From the NCBI RefSeq assembly GCF_006345805.1, contig NC_043021.1, forward strand, positions 15,314,001 to 15,378,000: a stretch of 64,000 nucleotides of DNA, read 5' to 3'. The translations under genes were made by a program, and so were the position numbers. How positions within the stretch are numbered: the stretch's first letter is position 1; each line of letters starts with the position of its first letter. The notes below the pieces were generated by a model, which saw only the letters and a list, made by a program, of their open reading frames with translations, made no database searches and was not told where the DNA came from. Origin of the DNA: Octopus sinensis. Taxonomy: Eukaryota. Shown here piece by piece: positions 17,383 through 55,003 of the stretch.

Positions 17383-17592
17383 AATGTAACCAAATTTCGA
17401 TCATTGGCAATTTTTTTCCTCCATCTTCCTTTTCTGTTGGACTTTCCTCCATCTCCTGTTTCTGACGAAGAGCTTTGCTCGAAACGTAAAACTACCTTTC
17501 GTTCCTTCCCTGAGCGTCTGCTAATACTTTGCATGTACCACGTCCTCACGTTGTTGCTTTTTTCTTGTGTTTTTTCTTTTTTTTTTATTAAC
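17383..17592 (+). mobile_element. ~200-bp hammerhead-bearing element, family E1 (Penelope pLTR/retrozyme-like)
   Basis: Homologous to 53281-53487 and 59597-59803 (minus) and weakly to 4600-4810. Ends in (TA)n. Confidence 0.7.
17458..17492 (+). ncRNA. Minimal type I hammerhead ribozyme motif
   Basis: GUUU-CUGACGA-A-GAGC(UUU)GCUC-GAAA-CGUA/AAAC: helix I GUUU:AAAC, 4-bp helix II, palindromic ACGU helix III, GUA cleavage triplet. Confidence 0.75.
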
Positions 17593-44492: not shown

Positions 44493-47400
44493 ATACACAC
44501 ACACACACACACAGGTGCATATATATATACACACACACAAACACGTGGATATGCATATATATACACATGCTACACACTTGAACATACATAAACACATGCA
44601 TATACATATATACACATACACCCACCATTCACAAATACATATATATGTAAACATATCTGTAAGCCAATAAGGAAGGCTCTGTGGAATCACCTGACTTGCT
44701 AGAAATGGCAGCAAAATTTTCTTCATATTGCACCCTACTATTTAAAAAAGGGGAAGGATACATTGAATGATATAGTCCCAGATACACTATGTCTGCAAAA
44801 AAGAGAGAAAAAGGATAGTCTTATCTTGTAGTGTCTTTAATCATAAGTCCCCAAGTAATCAGGACTCACCAGGAGTTAGACAACAACAACTGCAAGTTGT
44901 CATCAATTAATACCTTTCTGTTTTACTGCCAGCATAGGTGTGACCATGATGGAGCACCCCATAAAAATATTTTTCTAAAGGAAACAACTGTAGTTACTTT
45001 TATGAAGGACAGGTAGAATTGTTGGCTCAGTGGATAAGATGCTTAGCAGCATTTCTTCCTGCTCTTTGTGTTCTAAGTTCAAATCTCACTGAGGTTGATT
45101 TTGCCTTTTATCCTTTTGGGGTTGATAAAATAAGATAACAGTCAAATACTATAATCAGCTTGGCCCCTCCCCTCAAAGATTGCTGGCCTTGCACTCTGCA
45201 ACAGACTGTGTTTTACTCAGAGGAGAAGTGTGATCTTGGTTACTTATATGTATGCTATGGTAACTGGTCTTATGAGTCCTGTGGCTCCAGAAAATAAAGA
45301 AGGACAAAATACTAATCATTAAAACTTGATATGTCTTAGCTGTTATATTCTACAGATCTCTGCTGACTTTATTCCTTCAAGGTAAAACGAGGTTAAAAGA
45401 ATGGAATTATTTAACCGACCCTTTTGATACCAACCTGCCTAAGACTGTCTATGCTGCTTTGATACAAACTTCATGCTTAAATTGATTGAAATTAAGACCA
45501 CCTTTCAAAATTTCATGTTGATTACTGTTCCAAACACCAGATTAATAATGACAAAGTTACTGTACAAAATTCTTCATCATTTTCGAAATTGGCGCAAAGG
45601 CAGTGTATTTCAGCAGAAATATGGTTGCAAAAGGGTTAAAGAGCTTTATTAATCCTTTTACTGCAGAAATCAGATACATCTACTCAAAATTTTGTTGCCT
45701 GTAACTGTGAAAGCAGTTTTATTTAGCAAACTATCTTTTGTTGAAAAATATCGTGTTTGAAACTATTTTATGTAGCGATATATCAAATTTATAAAGGCAA
45801 TGTGACTTACAGACAATACTGATCCTATTTCAGCAGGAGGGGTTAGTTGATTGTATTGACTCCAGTAGTCACTTGGTACTTAGTGTAAACAACTTTGAAA
45901 GGGTGAAAGGCCAAGTCAACCTTGGTGCAATTTGAACTTTGTATGTAAAGAGTCAAAAGAAATGCTGTTGGGCATTTTGTCTGACATGCAAGCAATTCTG
46001 CCAGCTTGCAGCGTTAATAATAATAACTGCCATTCTCCTCCTCATTGTTTTAATGTTCACTTTTCCACGCTTGCATGGGTGAGACAGAATTTTGATGAGG
46101 CAGATTTTCCATAGCTGGATGCCTTACTTGTCACTAACCCTCACCTGTTTCCATGCAAGCTAACATTCTCCCATGGCTGGACATGTGTTTTTCACGGATG
46201 ACTGGAAACAAACAACATCATTTATTAGACAATGCTGATAATTCACACCCAACACGTCAAGACAAGAGTTTACACACACACACACACACAGGTGCATATA
46301 TATATACACACACACAAACACGTGGATATGCATATATATACACATGCTACACACTTGAACATACATAAACACATGCATATACATATATACACATACACCC
46401 ACCATTCACAAATACATATATATGTAAACATATCTGTAAGCCAATAAGGAAGGCTCTGTGGAATCACCTGACTTGCTAGAAATGGCAGCAAAATTTTCTT
46501 CATATTGCACCCTACTATTTAAAAAAGGGGAAGGATACATTGAATGATATAGTCCCAGATACACTATGTCTGCAAAAAAGAGAGAAAAAGGATAGTCTTA
46601 TCTTGTAGTGTCTTTAATCATAAGTCCCCAAGTAATCAGGACTCACCAGGAGTTAGACAACAACAACTGCAAGTTGTCATCAATTAATACCTTTCTGTTT
46701 TACTGCCAGCATAGGTGTGACCATGATGGAGCACCCCATAAAAATATTTTTCTAAAGGAAACAAACTGTAGTTACTTTTATGAAGGACAGGTAGAATTGT
46801 TGGCTCAGTGGATAAGATGCTTAGCAGCATTTCTTCCTGCTCTTTGTGTTCTAAGTTCAAATCTCACTGAGGTTGATTTTGCCTTTTATCCTTTTGGGGT
46901 TGATAAAATAAGATAACAGTCAAATACTATAATCAGCTTGGCCCCTCCCCTCAAAGATTGCTGGCCTTGCACTCTGCAACAGACTGGTGTTTTACTCAGA
47001 GGAGAAAGTGTGATCTTGGTTACTTATTATGTATGCTATGGTAACTGGTCTTATGAGTCCTGTGGCTCCAGAAAATAAAGAAGGACAAAATACTAATCAT
47101 TAAAACTTGATATGTCTTAGCTGTTATATTCTACAGATCTCTGCTGACTTTATTCCTTCAAGGTAAAACGAGGTTAAAAGAATGGAATTATTTAACCGAC
47201 CCTTTTGATACCAACCTGCCTAAGACTGTCTATGCTGCTTTGATACAAACTTCATGCTTAAATTGATTGAAATTAAGACCACCTTTCAAAATTTCATGTT
47301 GATTACTGTTCCAAACACCAGATTAATAATGACAAAGTTACTGTACAAAATTCTTCATCATTTTCGAAATTGGCGCAAAGGCAGTGTATTTCAGCAGAAA

Positions 47401-48050
47401 TATGGTTGCAAAAGGGTTAAAGAGCTTTATTAATCCTTTTACTGCAGAAATCAGATACATCTACTCAAAATTTTGTTGCCTGTAACTGTGAAAAGCAGTT
47501 TTATTTAGCAAACTATCTTTTGTTGAAAAATATCGTGTTTGAAACTATTTTATGTAGCGATATATCAAATTTATAAAGGCAATGTGACTTACAGACAATA
47601 CTGATCCTATTTCAGCAGGAGGGGTTAGTTGATTGTATTGACTCCAGTAGTCACTTGGTACTTAGTGTAAACAACTTTGAAAGGGTGAAAGGCCAAGTCA
47701 ACCTTGGTGGAATTTGAACTTTGTATGTAAAGAGTCAAAAGAAATGCTGTTGGGCATTTTGTCTGACATGCAAGCAATTCTGCCAGCTTGCAGCGTTAAT
47801 AATAATAACTGCCATTCTCCTCCTCATTGTTTTAATGTTCACTTTTCCACGCTTGCATGGGTGAGACAGAATTTTGATGAGGCAGATTTTCCATAGCTGG
47901 ATGCCTTACTTGTCACTAACCCTCACCTGTTTCCATGCAAGCTAACATTCTCCCATGGCTGGACATGTGTTTTTCACGGATGACTGGAAACAAACAACAT
48001 CATTTATTAGACAATGCTGATAATTCACATCCAACATGTCAAGAGAAGAG

Positions 48051-48056
<6 letters not shown>
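44493..48056. repeat. Near-identical tandem duplication, ~1.78-kb unit x2 (44493-46270, 46271-~48056)
   Basis: Identical ORFs are offset by 1777 (44831/46608) and 1782 (45932/47714); junctions lie in (CA)n tracts. Confidence 0.95.
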
Positions 48057-48130
<74 letters not shown>

Positions 48131-48314
48131 ATTCAGTTTCTATCTATGAAATCTGTTGGCTTGAGACAAAAGTAAAGTTTTTGAGGGAATGATTCAGTTA
48201 GTATCACCAACCACACTTTTACACTATTTGACTGGTATATATTTTATCTATGCCGTAACAGAATTACCTGTTCTCTTAGCCATTATATTACAGTATTGAA
48301 ATTATATGTCAAAT

Positions 48315-48352
48315 CTGTTTTCATTTTTCTTTTCTTTATTTTTCAGGTAAGT
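48315..48352 (+). promoter_or_regulatory. Juxtaposed 3' and 5' splice consensus (candidate recursive splice site)
   Basis: TCTGTTTTCATTTTTCTTTTCTTTATTTTTCAG|GTAAGT in non-repetitive sequence. Confidence 0.45.
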
Positions 48353-48546
48353 CATCTTGTTGAGTTCTTCAGTTCTTACAAGGAATGAGTAACGGACATC
48401 AATTTTGGCAATTTGCTGTAATTTCTTCCTGATGGCAAAATACAATGACTGTAAAGGTTTTGATAATTTCTATTATTTATACCTTAAATGTTAATTCATA
48501 TTCCATAACGCTGGCTTACTTTTTTGGTAAATATACATATATTTAG

Positions 48547-48823
48547 GGGCAGGAGTGGCTGTGTGGTAAGTAGCTTGCTTACCAACCACACAGTTCCAGG
48601 TTCAGTCCCACTGCGTGGCACCTTGTGAAAGTGTCTTCTACTATAGCCTCGGGCTGACCAAAGCTTTGTGAGTGGATTTGGTAGATGGAAACTGAAAGAA
48701 GCCTATGTGTGTGTTTGTATGTCTGTGACCGATAGAATAAGTACTGGGGTCGATTTGCTCGACTAAAAGGCAGTGCTCCAGCATGGCCGCAGTCAAATGA
48801 CTGAAACAAGTAAAACAGTAAGA
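48547..48823 (+). mobile_element. SINE family A with an internal deletion
   Basis: Head and tail intact, middle shortened. Confidence 0.8.
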
Positions 48824-49124
48824 GTATATGTATATGACTCGCATATCATGAAGTAGTGAGTTCAATTCCCAGGCCAGGTTGTATGTTGTGTTCTTGAGCA
48901 AGACACTTTATTTCACGTTGCTTCAGTTCACTCAGCTGAAGAAGTGAGTTGCAGTGTCACTGATGCCAAGCTGTATCGGCCTTTGCTTTTTCCTTGGACA
49001 ACATCAGTCGCATGGTCTTTCACAAAAACAACTTTGCCTGGATTTGTGCCTTGGAGGGGAACTTTCTAGGTGAAATCCCATGGTCACTCATGACAGAAGG
49101 AGGTTTTTACCCTTTATAATATAT

Positions 49125-49565
49125 CATCATCATCATCATCATTGTTTAACGTCCGTTTTCCATGCTAGCATGGTTTGGATGGTTCAACTGGGGTCTGGGA
49201 AGCCAGAAGGCTGTGCCAGGCCCAGTCTGATCTAGCAGTGTTTCTACAGATGGATGCCCTTCCTAACGCCAACCACTCCGTGAGTGTAGTGGGTGCTTTT
49301 TACGTGCCACCTGCACAGGTGCCAGACGAGGCTGGCAAACGGCCACAATCGGATGGTGCTTTTTACGTGCCACCTGCACAGGTGCCAGACGAGGCTGGCA
49401 AACGGCCACAATCGGATGGTGCTTTTTACGTGCCACCTGCACAGGTGCCAGACGAGGCTGGCAAACGGCCACAATCGGATGGTGCTTTTTACGTGCCACT
49501 GGCACACAGGCCAGTCGGGGCGGCACTGGCAATGGCCACGTTCGGATGGTTCTCTTATGTGCCAT
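49125..49565 (-). mobile_element. Repeat family D containing a 63-bp tandem array
   Basis: (CAT)n end. Unit GGTGCTTTTTACGTGCCACCTGCACAGGTGCCAGACGAGGCTGGCAAACGGCCACAATCGGAT starts at 49292, 49355 and 49418, with a diverged copy at 49481. A sister copy at 54298-54495 has a single partial unit. Confidence 0.85.
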
Positions 49566-49894
49566 ATATATATATGGTTCTCTTACATGCCATATATACT
49601 GCATTGTCAGATAAATTTGTTCACTCCCACCCCTATTTATTCTAATTCTTATTTTTCATCAACAATTTTAATAAATCAGTCGATAATATATTTCCCTTCA
49701 TTGTTCATGACTTCTTGCCAATGTTCTGCTAGCTTGCCAATCCCCCTTGATGGTAGAAATCACCAAGTTTTGGCTCGATTCATCAAGCTATGTTTTCAGC
49801 TTGAGATATTCTGATACATATTTTTGTATATCTTATGACTGTACAAACTAGACTCCGATTACCTTACTGGATATTTATATATATATATAAAATT

Positions 49895-50230
49895 ATGGAG
49901 ATGTACTTGCATAGCAAGTGACTTGATCTGAGATCATGTGCTGAAACAAAAACTATTGCAGCGTGGAAGGTGTTTATAAGCCATTTAAAAACAAAAACCG
50001 TTTGATTCACTTCAACATTTATATTTAATTTGTCGAAATATTTTCATCGCTTTGAAACTGCGACCTGTTCACTGACTAAATTTCAGCACGAGATGCAGCA
50101 TGAAATTTTGCCAGTGAACAGGTCAAAGTTTCAAAGCGACAAAAATATTTTGATGAATTAAATCTAAATGTTAAAGTGAATCAAACGTTTTTTTTGTGTG
50201 GTTTTAAACACCTTCCATGCTGCAATTGTT
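49895..50230. mobile_element. Foldback element: ~135-bp inverted arms (49951-50087, 50098-50230), each with a hammerhead-like fold; Penelope inverted-pLTR-like
   Basis: TTGCAGCGTGGAAGGTGTTT pairs with AAACACCTTCCATGCTGCAA, GTTTGATTCACTT with AAGTGAATCAAAC, and GACCTGTTCACTG with CAGTGAACAGGTC. TA tracts lie on both sides. Confidence 0.8.
50027..50082 (-). ncRNA. Hammerhead-like motif with swapped G3-C8 core
   Basis: AAUUUAGUCA-GUGAACA-G-GUCGC(AGUUUCAAA)GCGAU-GAAA-AUAU-UU/CGACAAAUU. Confidence 0.55.
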
Positions 50231-50237
50231 ATATATA

Positions 50238-50683
50238 GGCGCAGGAGTGGCTGTGTGGTAAGTAGCTTGCTTACCAACCACATGGTTCTGAGTCCAGTCC
50301 CACTGCATGGCACCTTGGGCAAGTGTCTTCTACTATAGCCTTGGGCCAACCAAAGCCTTGTGAGTGGATTTGGTAGACGGAAAACTGAAAGAAGCCCGTC
50401 GTATATATGTGTATATATATATATATATATGTATGTATATATATATATGTATGTATATATATATATGTATGTGTGTGTTTGTGTTCGTGTGTCTGTGTTT
50501 GTCCCTCCAACATCGCTTGACAACCGATGCTGGTGTGTTTATGTTCCTGTAACTTAGAGGTTCGACAAAAGAGGCTGATAGAATAAGTACTAGGCTTACA
50601 AAGAATAAGTCCTGGGGTCAGTTTGTTCGACTAAAGGCGGTGCTCCAGCATGGCCACAGTCAAATGACTGAAACAAGTAAAAG
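50238..50683 (+). mobile_element. Full-length SINE family A
   Basis: GGCGCAGGAGTGGCTGTGTGG head through to the AAACAAGTAAAAG tail. Confidence 0.9.
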
Positions 50684-50748
50684 TGTATGCCTCTATGGTA
50701 ATTTGCTTTGATCTGATTGATCCGCCCCCTATCTCCCCTCTCTGTCTC

Positions 50749-50783
<35 letters not shown>

Positions 50784-50958
50784 GTATATTCTATATATAT
50801 ATATATATATATACCTATATATTATATATATAAAGATATAAATTCGGGGTCGATAAATTAAGTACCAGTTACGCACTGGGGTCGATGTAATTGACTTAAT
50901 CCGTTTGTCTGTCCTTGTTTGTCCTCTCTGTGTTTAGCTCCTTGTGGGTAGTAAAGAA

Positions 50959-50992
<34 letters not shown>

Positions 50993-52174
50993 CACTCTCT
51001 CATACTCCCATATGTCTATATATAATCTAGTATGTATTTACTTCAATATCCAGCTTGATTCTGTTTTCATACCTGCCTTAGTTGGGGCTACATTTATTCT
51101 ATATTGTTATGTTACTGCATTAAACCAGTCCCCCACCCCATTTTATTGTGTTCTCTGCTAATCGCTTTGCACAAGATAAATATTTTTGCTTCAGTTGCAA
51201 AATATTTATTCCTGTAACCGCTGTAAATGTGTGTGTGTATGTATATGTATAAATATGTGTACATTTAAATGTATGTACATATATGTGTATACATCTGTGT
51301 GTTTGTGTGTGTGTTTATACATATATATATATATATATACATACATATACATACATATATATATACATACATACATACACATCCTGTCTCATTAATTTTG
51401 CTTTTCTTTCTTTCACTTTCATCTCAGTTTTTCACAATCCCTCTTTTTCTCTCTCAATTTAAAGATTTGGACAAATATATCTCCAAGCCAAGACTTTTCC
51501 CAATATTATAATTGGCAATCTCTAATTATATTAAAATTAATTACATTTTCAATTTTATTTCTTCTTGGGGAAAAAAAAAAAAAAAGTCCTTCTTATTAAT
51601 TTTTCTATATTTTCAAAGATGGAAAGAAAGCAAAAAATTTTGAATTTTTTAATCGTTATTTATCATTATTTATTGTTTTTGTTTTTATGAAATAAGTGGG
51701 CTGGTCCTTTATTGTGTGTTTCTGTGTATATGTGTGCCTATGTGCGTGTGTGTGTATGTGTGTGTATGCATGTGTGTGTGATTATATGTGTATGATTGTG
51801 CGTATATGTATTTGTATGTGTATGCATTCATGTGTGTGTGTGTATGTATGTGTATATATGGGCGTGTATGTGTGTATATGTTCGGATGTGTATATGTAAG
51901 AGCAAGACAACCAGATTGGTCAGTGTATTATGGAACTACCTGTTCAATTCAAATCTATTTCCACAGTTTCATTGCTATTTGGGAGAAAGAACCCCTTTAT
52001 CTCTACATTAGCGTTCCACCTCATGCTAATGAATTAATTGGTCTGCTAGAAATGATAACCAAATCTTCCTTTAATAACACCCTAAATAGAATAATGAGAT
52101 AATGTGGTCCATTGACACTTCCAAAAGACAGGATGGTGATGACAGCAATGTATCTGATCTTGATCTGTTATATA

Positions 52175-52576
52175 CTCTTTACTCTCTTTTTACTCTTTTA
52201 CTTGTTTCAGTCATTTGACTGCAGCCATGCTGGAGCACCACCTTTAGTCGAGCAAATTGACCCCGGGACTTATTCTTTGTAAGCCCAGTACTTATTCTAT
52301 AGGTCTCTTTTGCCGAACCGCTAAGTGACAGGGATGTAAACACACCAGCATCGGTTGTCAAGCAATGCTAGGGGGACAAACACATACACACACACATATA
52401 TATACATATATACGACAGGTTTCTCTCAGTTTCCGTCTACCAAATCCACTCACAAGGCATTGGTTGGCCTGGGGCTATAGCAGAAGACACTTGCCCAAGA
52501 TGCCACGTAGTGGGACTGAACCTGGAACCATGTGGTTGGTTAGCAAGCTACTTACCACACAGCCACTCCTGCACCT
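52175..52576 (-). mobile_element. Full-length SINE family A (young subfamily)
   Basis: Shares the diagnostic GGTTGGTTAGCAAGCTAC with the copies at 15497, 24585 and 38110. Confidence 0.9.
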
Positions 52577-53239
52577 GTATATCTGTATAAAAGCATATCA
52601 ACATTTGTATAAAGGCATTTCAACATGCAAATAGCAGGGAATAAAATTGTTTAGTTGCAGGTTTGCAACAGGCCAGCCATAGTTCCTCTGGACTTTTGAT
52701 AGCAAGAGTGACAAATGAGTGTCTGTAAGTTCAAGCAGAACAAATATTACAAGGGATTTAGTTTATAAAGCACTGCTTTCTTTTTTTTTTGTTCTTTGTT
52801 TTTTTGAGTGGTGTGGTTTTATTGCCAGTATTTACATCTTCCAACAAAAGTGTGTGTGTGTATTGTTAGTAGCTTGTTTACCAACCACATGGTTCCAGGT
52901 TCAGTCACACTGCATGGTACCTTGGGCATGTGTCTCCTACTATAACCTCAGGTTGACCAAAGCCTTGTGAGTGGATGTGGTAGCCAGAAACTGAAAGAAG
53001 ACTGTTGTATATATATATATATATATATTGTGTGTGTGTGTGCGTTTGTATATCTGTTTGTCCCCCCACCATTGCTTGACAAACAATGTTGGTGTGTACA
53101 TCCCCGTAACTTAGCAGTTTGACAAAAGAGACTGATAGAATAAGTACTAGACTTACAAAGAATAAGTACTGGGGTCGATTTGTTTGACTAGAGGTGGTGC
53201 TCCAGCATGGCCACAGTCAAATAGCTGATGTAAATAATA

Positions 53240-53280
<41 letters not shown>

Positions 53281-53286
<6 letters not shown>

Positions 53287-53487
53287 ATCCAAACATGAAA
53301 ACACAAAGAGAAAACACAACAACACGAGGACGTGGAACAAGTATAGTATTATTGGATGCTCAGGAAAGAAGGAAGGCATAAAGTTTCGAGCGGAGCTCTT
53401 TGTCAGAAACAGGAAAGATTCAAAGGAAAGATTCAAAGAAGGGAAGACGGAGGAAAAAAATCACCAACAGTACACACACGGTCACAT
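53281..53487 (-). mobile_element. Family E1 element; hammerhead core mutated (CUGACAA)
   Basis: Very similar to 59597-59803; (TA)n on both sides. Confidence 0.7.
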
Positions 53488-53494
53488 TATATAT

Positions 53495-53548
<54 letters not shown>

Positions 53549-54264
53549 TTTTATGTCTCTTTTTCCATGCCGGCATGGGGTGGGACTGGCCAGAGGTTTG
53601 TGCTAGGTCCTTTGCTGCTGTTTTCCATGGTCTCTACAGCTGGATGCTCTTCCTAATGCCAACCACTCAACAGCGTACTGGGTGTTTTTATAAATAGAAC
53701 TCAAAAACATACTTTTAATTTATTTCTAATAAGCAGAACAATTAGAAAATACCATTCATGAAACTTTTAGCCCTCAAGGCACTTTTCTAGCGTTTTGCCA
53801 ATTAAAAGAATAAAAAGATGTATATCATTGTCATCGTTCTCCTCCTCATTTAACATGCATGTATGTATTACTGTAGCAATATGAGTAAATACATTGTGCA
53901 CTTTATTTAAGTTACATAAAAAATGGATTTGCCATGACTCTGGTTGATATTGATTCAAAGCAATCACAAAAGAGCTATGTAAAGTTTACATAGCAAATAT
54001 TATTTTAATGTCTGGTAGTTTGCATTAAGTAGATCTCCACCCACTTAATATACCATCGATATGTATGTATGTAAACAGTGCTGAATAGGAGACTTAGTCC
54101 TTTTATCACAACATTATAAGTTACATAATCTTTACACATGTTTCACTTGCAAATCTAATTTGTTATGCAGTAGTTGTGACACAGGCATGAAACACAGTAT
54201 CTTCAAGAAAGAAAAAAATAGTAATTTAACCTATTTATACCAACTTTAGGTGGTTGACAGTGCT

Positions 54265-54299
<35 letters not shown>

Positions 54300-54781
54300 C
54301 ATCATCATCGTTTAACGTCCGTTCTCCATGCTAGCATGGGTTGGACGGTTCGACCGGGGATCTGGGAAGCCAGAAGGCTGCACCAGGCTCCAGTCTTATC
54401 TGGCAATGTTTCTACAGCTGGATGCCCTTCCTAACGCCAACCACTCCGTGAGTGTAGTGGGTGCTTTTTACGTGCCACCTGCACAGGTGCCAGGCAATAT
54501 ATAGGGAGAGAGAGAGAAATAATGATCAAATAACACCTGGGTTCCTCTTATACTAACTCTTCGCAGACTTGGTCCTTGGTAAAGATTTCAGAGTGCGAGT
54601 TCAAATCATTTGAGTGCTATTGTTTTCTATATCGAATGTCTCTGGATCTCATCTGTTGAGTGCATGTGTGTGTGTGTACATACATACATACATACACATA
54701 TATGTACACACATACACACCACATATATTCTCCCCTTCTTCCTAGTTCTCCCATGTGACCCCTCTGTCCAGCATTTGCCAT

Positions 54782-54953
54782 GATAGATCGCTGGCCACTA
54801 AACCCTTTTTATTTTCTCTCCCTATTTATTTCTGTGTTCCTTTCTATCAAAGAGCATAGGCTCAAAACGTTAAAGACTTTTTCACTTCCGGAGTGTTAAA
54901 CTAATACATTTGTTTGTTTTTTACACACCCGTCTTTTGTTTTTTTGTAAATTC

Positions 54954-54958
<5 letters not shown>
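54782..54958 (+). mobile_element. Family E2 element; core decayed, helices I and II retained
   Basis: CTTT-CTATCAA-A-GAGC(ATAG)GCTC-AAAA-CGTT/AAAG, followed by (TA)n. Confidence 0.65.

Positions 54959-55003
<45 letters not shown>

Follow-up and report, generated by a model that had tools for sequence, protein, structure and literature searches.

The foldback at positions 49892-50230 of the window, the 64,000-nucleotide stretch of Octopus sinensis DNA analysed here, consists of two short copies of a pLTR, arranged head to head, from a Penelope-like element (PLE) of the endonuclease-positive kind. Each copy carries a motif that comparative sequence evidence identifies as a genuine hammerhead homologue, its core naturally swapped. 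The pair between positions 3 and 8 is Watson-Crick, its identity is G3-C8 and not the canonical C3-G8, and this is the state of the whole family, here called family A. Both motifs of the foldback are predicted to be inactive.

Structure of the foldback locus

The inverted repeat spans 280 bp in total, with arms at 49951-50085 and 50101-50230. By hand count the arms are identical in 112 of 135 alignment columns, and their ungapped core of 93 nt is 87% identical. The arm alignment and coordinates bear out the 280-bp inverted repeat with a motif in each arm that was described in an initial annotation of this DNA. The layout is the usual PLE arrangement of an inverted copy plus a tail, with the following parts.

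49872-49891, no strand: (TA)n target at the tail end, from the sequence
49892-49950, minus strand: tail of about 59 nt, on one of the two copies only, a PLE signature (PMC8557442, PMC11167929)
49892-50079, minus strand: long pLTR copy with hammerhead motif, 5′ leader, the first ~31 ORF codons and tail; 87% identity to a young copy
49982-49984, minus strand: start codon of the PLE ORF; in the tandem copy L251 a long frame begins at this ATG
50029-50079, minus strand: G3-C8 minimal hammerhead motif, decayed; predicted cut after 50036 (sequence and fold)
50080-50089, no strand: head-to-head junction with a short rearranged leader piece, from the sequence
50090, plus strand: extra G preceding the short copy, where the element has C (sequence comparison)
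50091-50230, plus strand: short tail-less inverted pLTR copy, its 5′ end exactly at the family hot spot; 77% identity to a young copy
50107-50157, plus strand: G3-C8 minimal hammerhead motif, predicted dead (sequence and fold)

The tail is likely the stretch between two RT start sites, and G50090 is likely a reverse-transcribed cap. A short TA run is also found directly after 50230. The ORF frame of the long copy is interrupted by a stop at codon 17, and no further family A copy or PLE ORF was found within the 64-kb window. The junction of this foldback is spanned by no other of 40 scored family candidates. The locus itself is an ordinary dead insertion.

The two arms had earlier been interpreted as a divergent ribozyme pair. 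We regard it as extremely improbable that the foldback is a functional, locus-specific device, be it such a pair or a regulated hairpin. RNA from either strand is predicted to fold into a very stable hairpin of about −150 kcal/mol, but in read-through RNA the arms pair together and sequester both motifs, which have moreover both decayed. Inverted tail-less copies are a standard PLE product (PMC8557442) and are common in family A. The foldback is thus an insertion by-product.

Two further repeats lie close to it. To its left is a 63-bp tandem repeat of 3.4 units (49292-49506). The right end is adjoined by a dispersed repeat (50230-50400), which we take to be an octopus SINE and which is 90% like a copy at 48538-48691, 1.7 kb upstream.

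The two window motifs

In both arms the order of elements is helix I, GUGAACA, an extra G, helix II, GAAA, AUAU, UU and helix I. For the minus-strand copy, the 5′ strand of helix I was mapped to 50079-50073 and the end of its 3′ strand to 50029, with G3 at 50072, C8 at 50067, the extra G at 50065 and U17 at 50036. Helix II (GUCGC/GCGAU) is followed by GAAA and AUAU. The 10.1-11.1 pair is G-U, where the family has G-C, and helix I contains two mismatches, the second of which is A50077 opposite A50031. The initial annotation, which had this copy keeping GAAA and helix II with an A-C mismatch in helix I, was correct as far as it went; one further helix I mismatch and the G-U pair have to be added. 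In the plus-strand copy G3 lies at 50114, C8 at 50119 and U17 at 50150. Here G12 has changed to A at a CpG (50141), a departure from the hammerhead core requirement, helix II (GUCAA/GCGAC) has two mismatches and helix I is damaged as well. The mapped coordinates agree with the change of GAAA to AAAA at a CpG and the damaged helix II noted before.

Neither window copy passes a hammerhead descriptor that gave 0 matches in 40 window shuffles, and their folding is no better than that of shuffles (z −0.9 and +0.9). An Rfam search of 45000-55000 returned no hammerhead match at E up to 10, only low-complexity miRNA models. Catalytic activity of the two copies is given hardly any chance.

G3-C8 is the family state

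The foldback arm gave 4075 first-look candidates in the 2.7-Gb genome, which a protein listed as Octopus vulgaris matches at 99% across the 102 aa that were searched. A strict motif pattern in which positions 3, 7, 8 and 9.1 were left open had 4526 exact matches, and the reversed control had 0. Among 100 listed of these 4526 matches, 95 are G3-C8 by hand count; the other five are two G3-G8, one G3-U8, one G3-A8 and one C3-C8. The proposal of a natural G3-C8 core conserved family-wide is upheld by this count. The pattern with the canonical core and the same helix II matched once genome-wide versus 4526 times for the open pattern, which confirms that a CUGANGA search is blind to the family. In 70 copies anchored downstream of the motif, 39 of whose underlying regions were hand-picked from listed rows 31-100, skipping most of those cut inside the core, G3 was present in 60/61 and C8 in 63/64 site-covering copies.

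The family majority has the core nucleotides U4, G5, A6, A9, G12, A13 and A14, the A15.1-U16.1 pair and H17. When family copies were compared, the combined consensus that had been assembled in the initial annotation proved to be the actual family majority. Large variation is limited to loop II, the flank and CpG sites, and loop II differs by subfamily. Of family A, two intact types were tested; both form helices I and II and leave the core single-stranded (MFE z −4.0 and −2.8). Conservation among the subfamilies of A covers the entire 3′ 250 nt, so constancy within the family does not by itself demonstrate selection on the motif. Four contig sets from four organisms had no alternative letter at core positions 3-9, a weak comparison because contigs collapse copies.

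The parent element encodes RT and GIY-YIG

An upstream walk through a (CATA)n tract reached RT and GIY-YIG remnants, and copies with long frames were recovered by a protein search that took no account of the motif. Locus L094 is a complete insertion unit composed of an inverted tail-less copy, RT, endonuclease, motif, tail and (TA)n. Locus L125 has an open frame of 1042 aa, a single ORF with RT and C-terminal GIY-YIG that includes YVDD and VYQIKC..C..YIG. L251 and L134 are tandems; L251 is organised as pLTR-ORF-pLTR, its ATG lying within the pLTR. The ORF of L251 starts 92 nt after G3, at the ATG that corresponds to window position 49984; the motif is therefore located in the 5′ leader of the ORF. 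Fifty loci were scanned, and in most of those reaching far enough the G3-C8 motif lies ~0.8-1.3 kb after the endonuclease; several had no motif within reach.

The family's own ORF was not recognised by Pfam. Among relatives, 6/22 match RVT_1 and 2/22 match GIY-YIG, and a structure search gave weak RT matches. A CX3CxxC linker (CQSNCAVC at residue 913) together with the (TA)n flanks at family copies points to the Neptune/Nematis type. The distance between RT motifs A and B is 128 aa in the L125 ORF (residues 487-615) and 128-130 aa over L125, P0001 and P0013 taken together, compared with 56-58 aa in P0088 and P0090, two PLE proteins of canonical type. The spacing, ~70 aa longer, would correspond to a fingers-region insertion in a clade of PLEs with a C-terminal endonuclease; canonical PLEs are described as having no fingers insertion (PMC8557442).

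Judged by these frames the parent family is autonomous, with both RT and GIY-YIG encoded. The PLE origin proposed initially is borne out by such ORFs linked to the motif (L094, L125, L251). Of the suggestion that the copies form a non-autonomous PLE or retrozyme family, one part has to be given up, since the parent is coding and not a retrozyme; what stands is that most copies are short, have a fixed start and are copied in trans. These short copies are non-coding pieces of the pLTR of the coding family. The family's 3′ ends are bimodal, with 29/69 near +125 and 34/69 near +180 in a partly picked sample, which matches the PLE tail signature (PMC8557442) and the two internal RT starts of PAc, a Poseidon element from Anolis (PMC11167929).

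Fixed 5′ end and extra G

Among 30 unselected copies, the start lies −25 to −5 from G3 in 22, further out in 3 and within the motif in 5. In an enlarged, partly picked sample 51/69 begin in the same zone and 7/69 extend beyond −26. The genome contains 639 copies with an A at −22, of which 100 were listed. By hand count 24 of those listed continue into upstream element sequence. In front of the other 76 the base is G in 50, C in 17 (templated), A in 7 and T in 2, two rows being a local duplicate. A script applied to overlapping material found G in 18/22, with mixed bases further upstream. At full-length L1 insertion junctions an extra G has been attributed to the cap (PMC11702581), and the promoter of Penelope is internal, immediately 3′ of the start site (PMC2377424). 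A capped transcription start at the A at −22 is likely from the pattern of copy ends, and many short copies would then be complete leader-RNA cDNAs and not random truncations. No earlier report of an extra G in PLEs was found in the available text of the literature searched.

Alternatively, the fixed 5′ end could be a 3′ splice site or an RT stop instead of a capped start. Sequence resembling a branch point, a pyrimidine tract and an AG is visible just upstream, and in D. virilis Penelope an intron ends at helix I (PMC4209133). However, the copies retain the AG, plus one added G that is preceded by unrelated sequence, and no common upstream exon was seen. Exons usually end in C or A at the position corresponding to the extra G, which also speaks against splicing. 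We therefore consider this explanation unlikely and retain the capped start.

A clean start at the cut site was found in 1/100 listed copies, and two more reach it via a palindromic junction. Since almost no copies start there, the RNA templates would have been mostly uncleaved, and uncleaved leader RNA as the source of cDNA implies a slow or conditional ribozyme. The rarity of cut-site starts fits a slow ribozyme and, equally, a dead one. A depth step near the cut site in contigs was set aside, since loop II variants and short copies confound it. The look-alike of a branch point with its pyrimidine tract and AG lies 15-40 nt before the motif in L251 and coincides with the 5′ hot spot.

It is doubtful that the short copies are a self-standing, SINE- or retrozyme-like non-autonomous family that is recopied from short copies. 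Short forms do predominate (the 7/69 beyond −26 come from a partly hand-picked sample), an internal promoter, if present, would let them be transcribed, and one foldback junction recurs in 11/100 listed rows (hand count), so that this form was amplified as a unit. Yet ORF-bearing copies include the same subfamily variants, the loci examined contained no tandem arrays of short units, and none of the other candidates among the 40 scored spans the junction of this foldback. The recurrent junction cuts into the core and is seen at many loci (e.g. L228, L231, L237) as a short palindromic derivative.

Relatives and covariation

Family C has 63% RT identity to family A and 599 matches for one pattern; outside microsatellites, no DNA similarity was found between the 3′ regions of the two families. 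In the same place family C has C3-G8, C9, the extra G and UU; one helix II pair differs on both sides, and G15.2-C16.2 replaces A-U. Helices I and II of family A recur in an old family B, there with U3-G8 or C3-G8. Twelve regions around family B copies contained no ORF, and its link to PLEs rests on 3′ sequence common to family C, seen by eye. Metagenome relatives have the motif about 100-130 nt after the ORF, as C3-G8 in L292 and as U3-A8 with C9 in L293. Among the nearest 35 of them (L291-L325) it was found in 3, and many contigs end near the ORF. The change of A9 to C, in family C (L173:2909-2958) with C3-G8 and at L293:2497 with U3-A8, is a second natural core change.

An alignment of 19 rows (10 family A types, 4 from C, 3 from B and the 2 window copies) had 91.6% paired cells, against 26-47% in slid controls. 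Both sides have changed in 7/15 pairs, including 3-8 and 15.2-16.2 as well as three pairs in helix I and two in helix II; this covariation comes from three aligned lineages plus two metagenome relatives, not from many independent events, and counts from shuffled alignments are therefore not to be read as probabilities. Folding, together with covariation in helices I and II, substantiates the minimal type I architecture that the initial annotation had put forward. The assignment as a hammerhead homologue follows from the relatives, which carry C3-G8 or U3-A8 in the same place with compensatory changes in helices I-III. In these relatives position 3 is a pyrimidine and position 8 a purine, so that a derived origin of G3-C8 is the simplest reading. 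The direction from C-G to G-C is a parsimony argument only; the midpoint root of the RT tree falls inside family A, with two long outgroups, and is unreliable.

A hammerhead descendant could by now be catalytically dead and be kept as a structure that binds RT or a host protein, or as part of an internal promoter. We regard this as possible, though well short of probable. Genomic copies stem from uncleaved RNA, and sister family C has the further core change A9C. In PAc, hammerhead mutants had no effect on insertion in vitro and no reads end at the cut site (PMC11167929), and the motif sits where Penelope has its internal promoter (PMC2377424). On the other hand, the 3-8 pair is Watson-Crick in three identities across the clade while U4, G5, A6, G12-A14 and U16.1 are fixed. 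A fixed core with a Watson-Crick 3-8 pair is expected from active-site geometry and not from a DNA element. The swap also needs two changes, and single-change states are rare (C3-C8 in 1/100 and G3-G8 in 2/100 listed).

Other hammerhead-like repeats were encountered. Another repeat family contributes two minimal hammerhead motifs with the canonical C3-G8 to the window, at 17462 (plus strand) and 59721 (minus strand). Further ones in the genome occur at L137, L144 and L180 and at L101 and L134, the types being U3-A8 and U at position 6.

Comparison with known systems

The minimal type I hammerheads of metazoan PLE pLTRs (Cervera and de la Peña 2014, PMC4209133) resemble those of family A in their pLTR location, the extra nucleotide between 9 and 10.1, G10.1-C11.1, a tiny palindromic helix III and their occurrence mostly as single dispersed copies with some opposite-strand pairs. 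That work reports a natural U3-A8, as does PMC3088659. Family A differs in its G3-C8, which is absent from the available text of PMC4209133, in a helix II of 5 bp and in a helix I of 7-8 bp. PAc (Frangieh 2024, PMC11167929) shares with family A the same swap, two RT starts early in the ORF, the tail and an uncleaved template. The swap in PAc is a laboratory rescue, whereas in family A it is the wild type of thousands of copies, and the ORF starts inside the ribozyme in PAc but 56 nt after the cut site in family A. From the Neptune/Nematis-type PLEs (Craig 2021, PMC8557442) family A differs in the A-B spacing of 128 aa, in DKS for DKG and in a tail of ~59 versus 30-40 nt.

Non-LTR retrozymes (bioRxiv 10.64898/2026.07.22.740005) are likewise short, non-coding and PLE-derived with a type I hammerhead. 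They are described as tandem arrays with a hammerhead per unit, in contrast to the dispersed or inverted pLTR copies of a coding family found here. Membership among retrozymes was considered and rejected, the short copies being of the same type as the ORF-bearing pLTRs.

In the available text of the literature searched (including PMC3884650, PMC6155905 and PMC13282606), G3-C8 was found as an engineered variant only and not as a natural one; older surveys, supplements and figures may show one. Searches of the available supplements gave no G3-C8 motif.

Proposed mechanism and significance

The reading that we consider quite likely is that of a PLE encoding RT and GIY-YIG with a G3-C8 hammerhead in its leader, whose intact copies would cleave slowly and only as a dimer or with the aid of protein, the window copies being inactive. 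Taken separately, catalysis by the intact type is somewhat less assured, although we lean towards it. The slow, partner- or protein-dependent cleavage is suggested by activity data on PLE hammerheads, the PAc rescue and a double-mutant scan. Minimal PLE hammerheads have low, dimer-dependent activity (PMC4209133, PMC6765202). In PAc, cleavage is protein-assisted and the engineered C3G/G8C partly restores the hammerhead (PMC11167929), and the G:C swap was the sole core rescue in a full double-mutant scan (PMC9901934). A cofold of two units gave a swapped helix II; the helix III of a double hammerhead was not obtained.

Transcription would start at the −22 site, and the hammerhead would form in the first 70 nt of the capped RNA. 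Reverse transcription by the element's own RT would use mostly uncleaved templates, begin at two internal positions, run up to the cap and insert at (TA)n targets; a second cDNA would account for the tail-less inverted copy. An RNA that is cut would lose the cap and about 58 nt of leader, or, if it is a tandem transcript with two motifs, would release RNA of unit length. More tentatively, the clade may tune its leader ribozyme by core-pair swaps, with G3-C8 as a slow decapping switch triggered by a dimer or by RT and with the G-tipped copies recording capped RNA that escaped it.

A swap that the literature searched shows only as a laboratory rescue is here the wild type of a high-copy, recently active retroelement. 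With G3-C8, three identities of the 3-8 pair have been seen in nature, and a single clade contains them all. G3-C8 escapes descriptors of the form CUGANGA or UUGANAA, so that PLE hammerhead counts, and claims that some PLE clades have none, may need rechecking. The extra-G hot spot places the likely start site without recourse to RNA data. Families A and C, both with long open frames, are a natural pair for asking what PLE hammerheads do.
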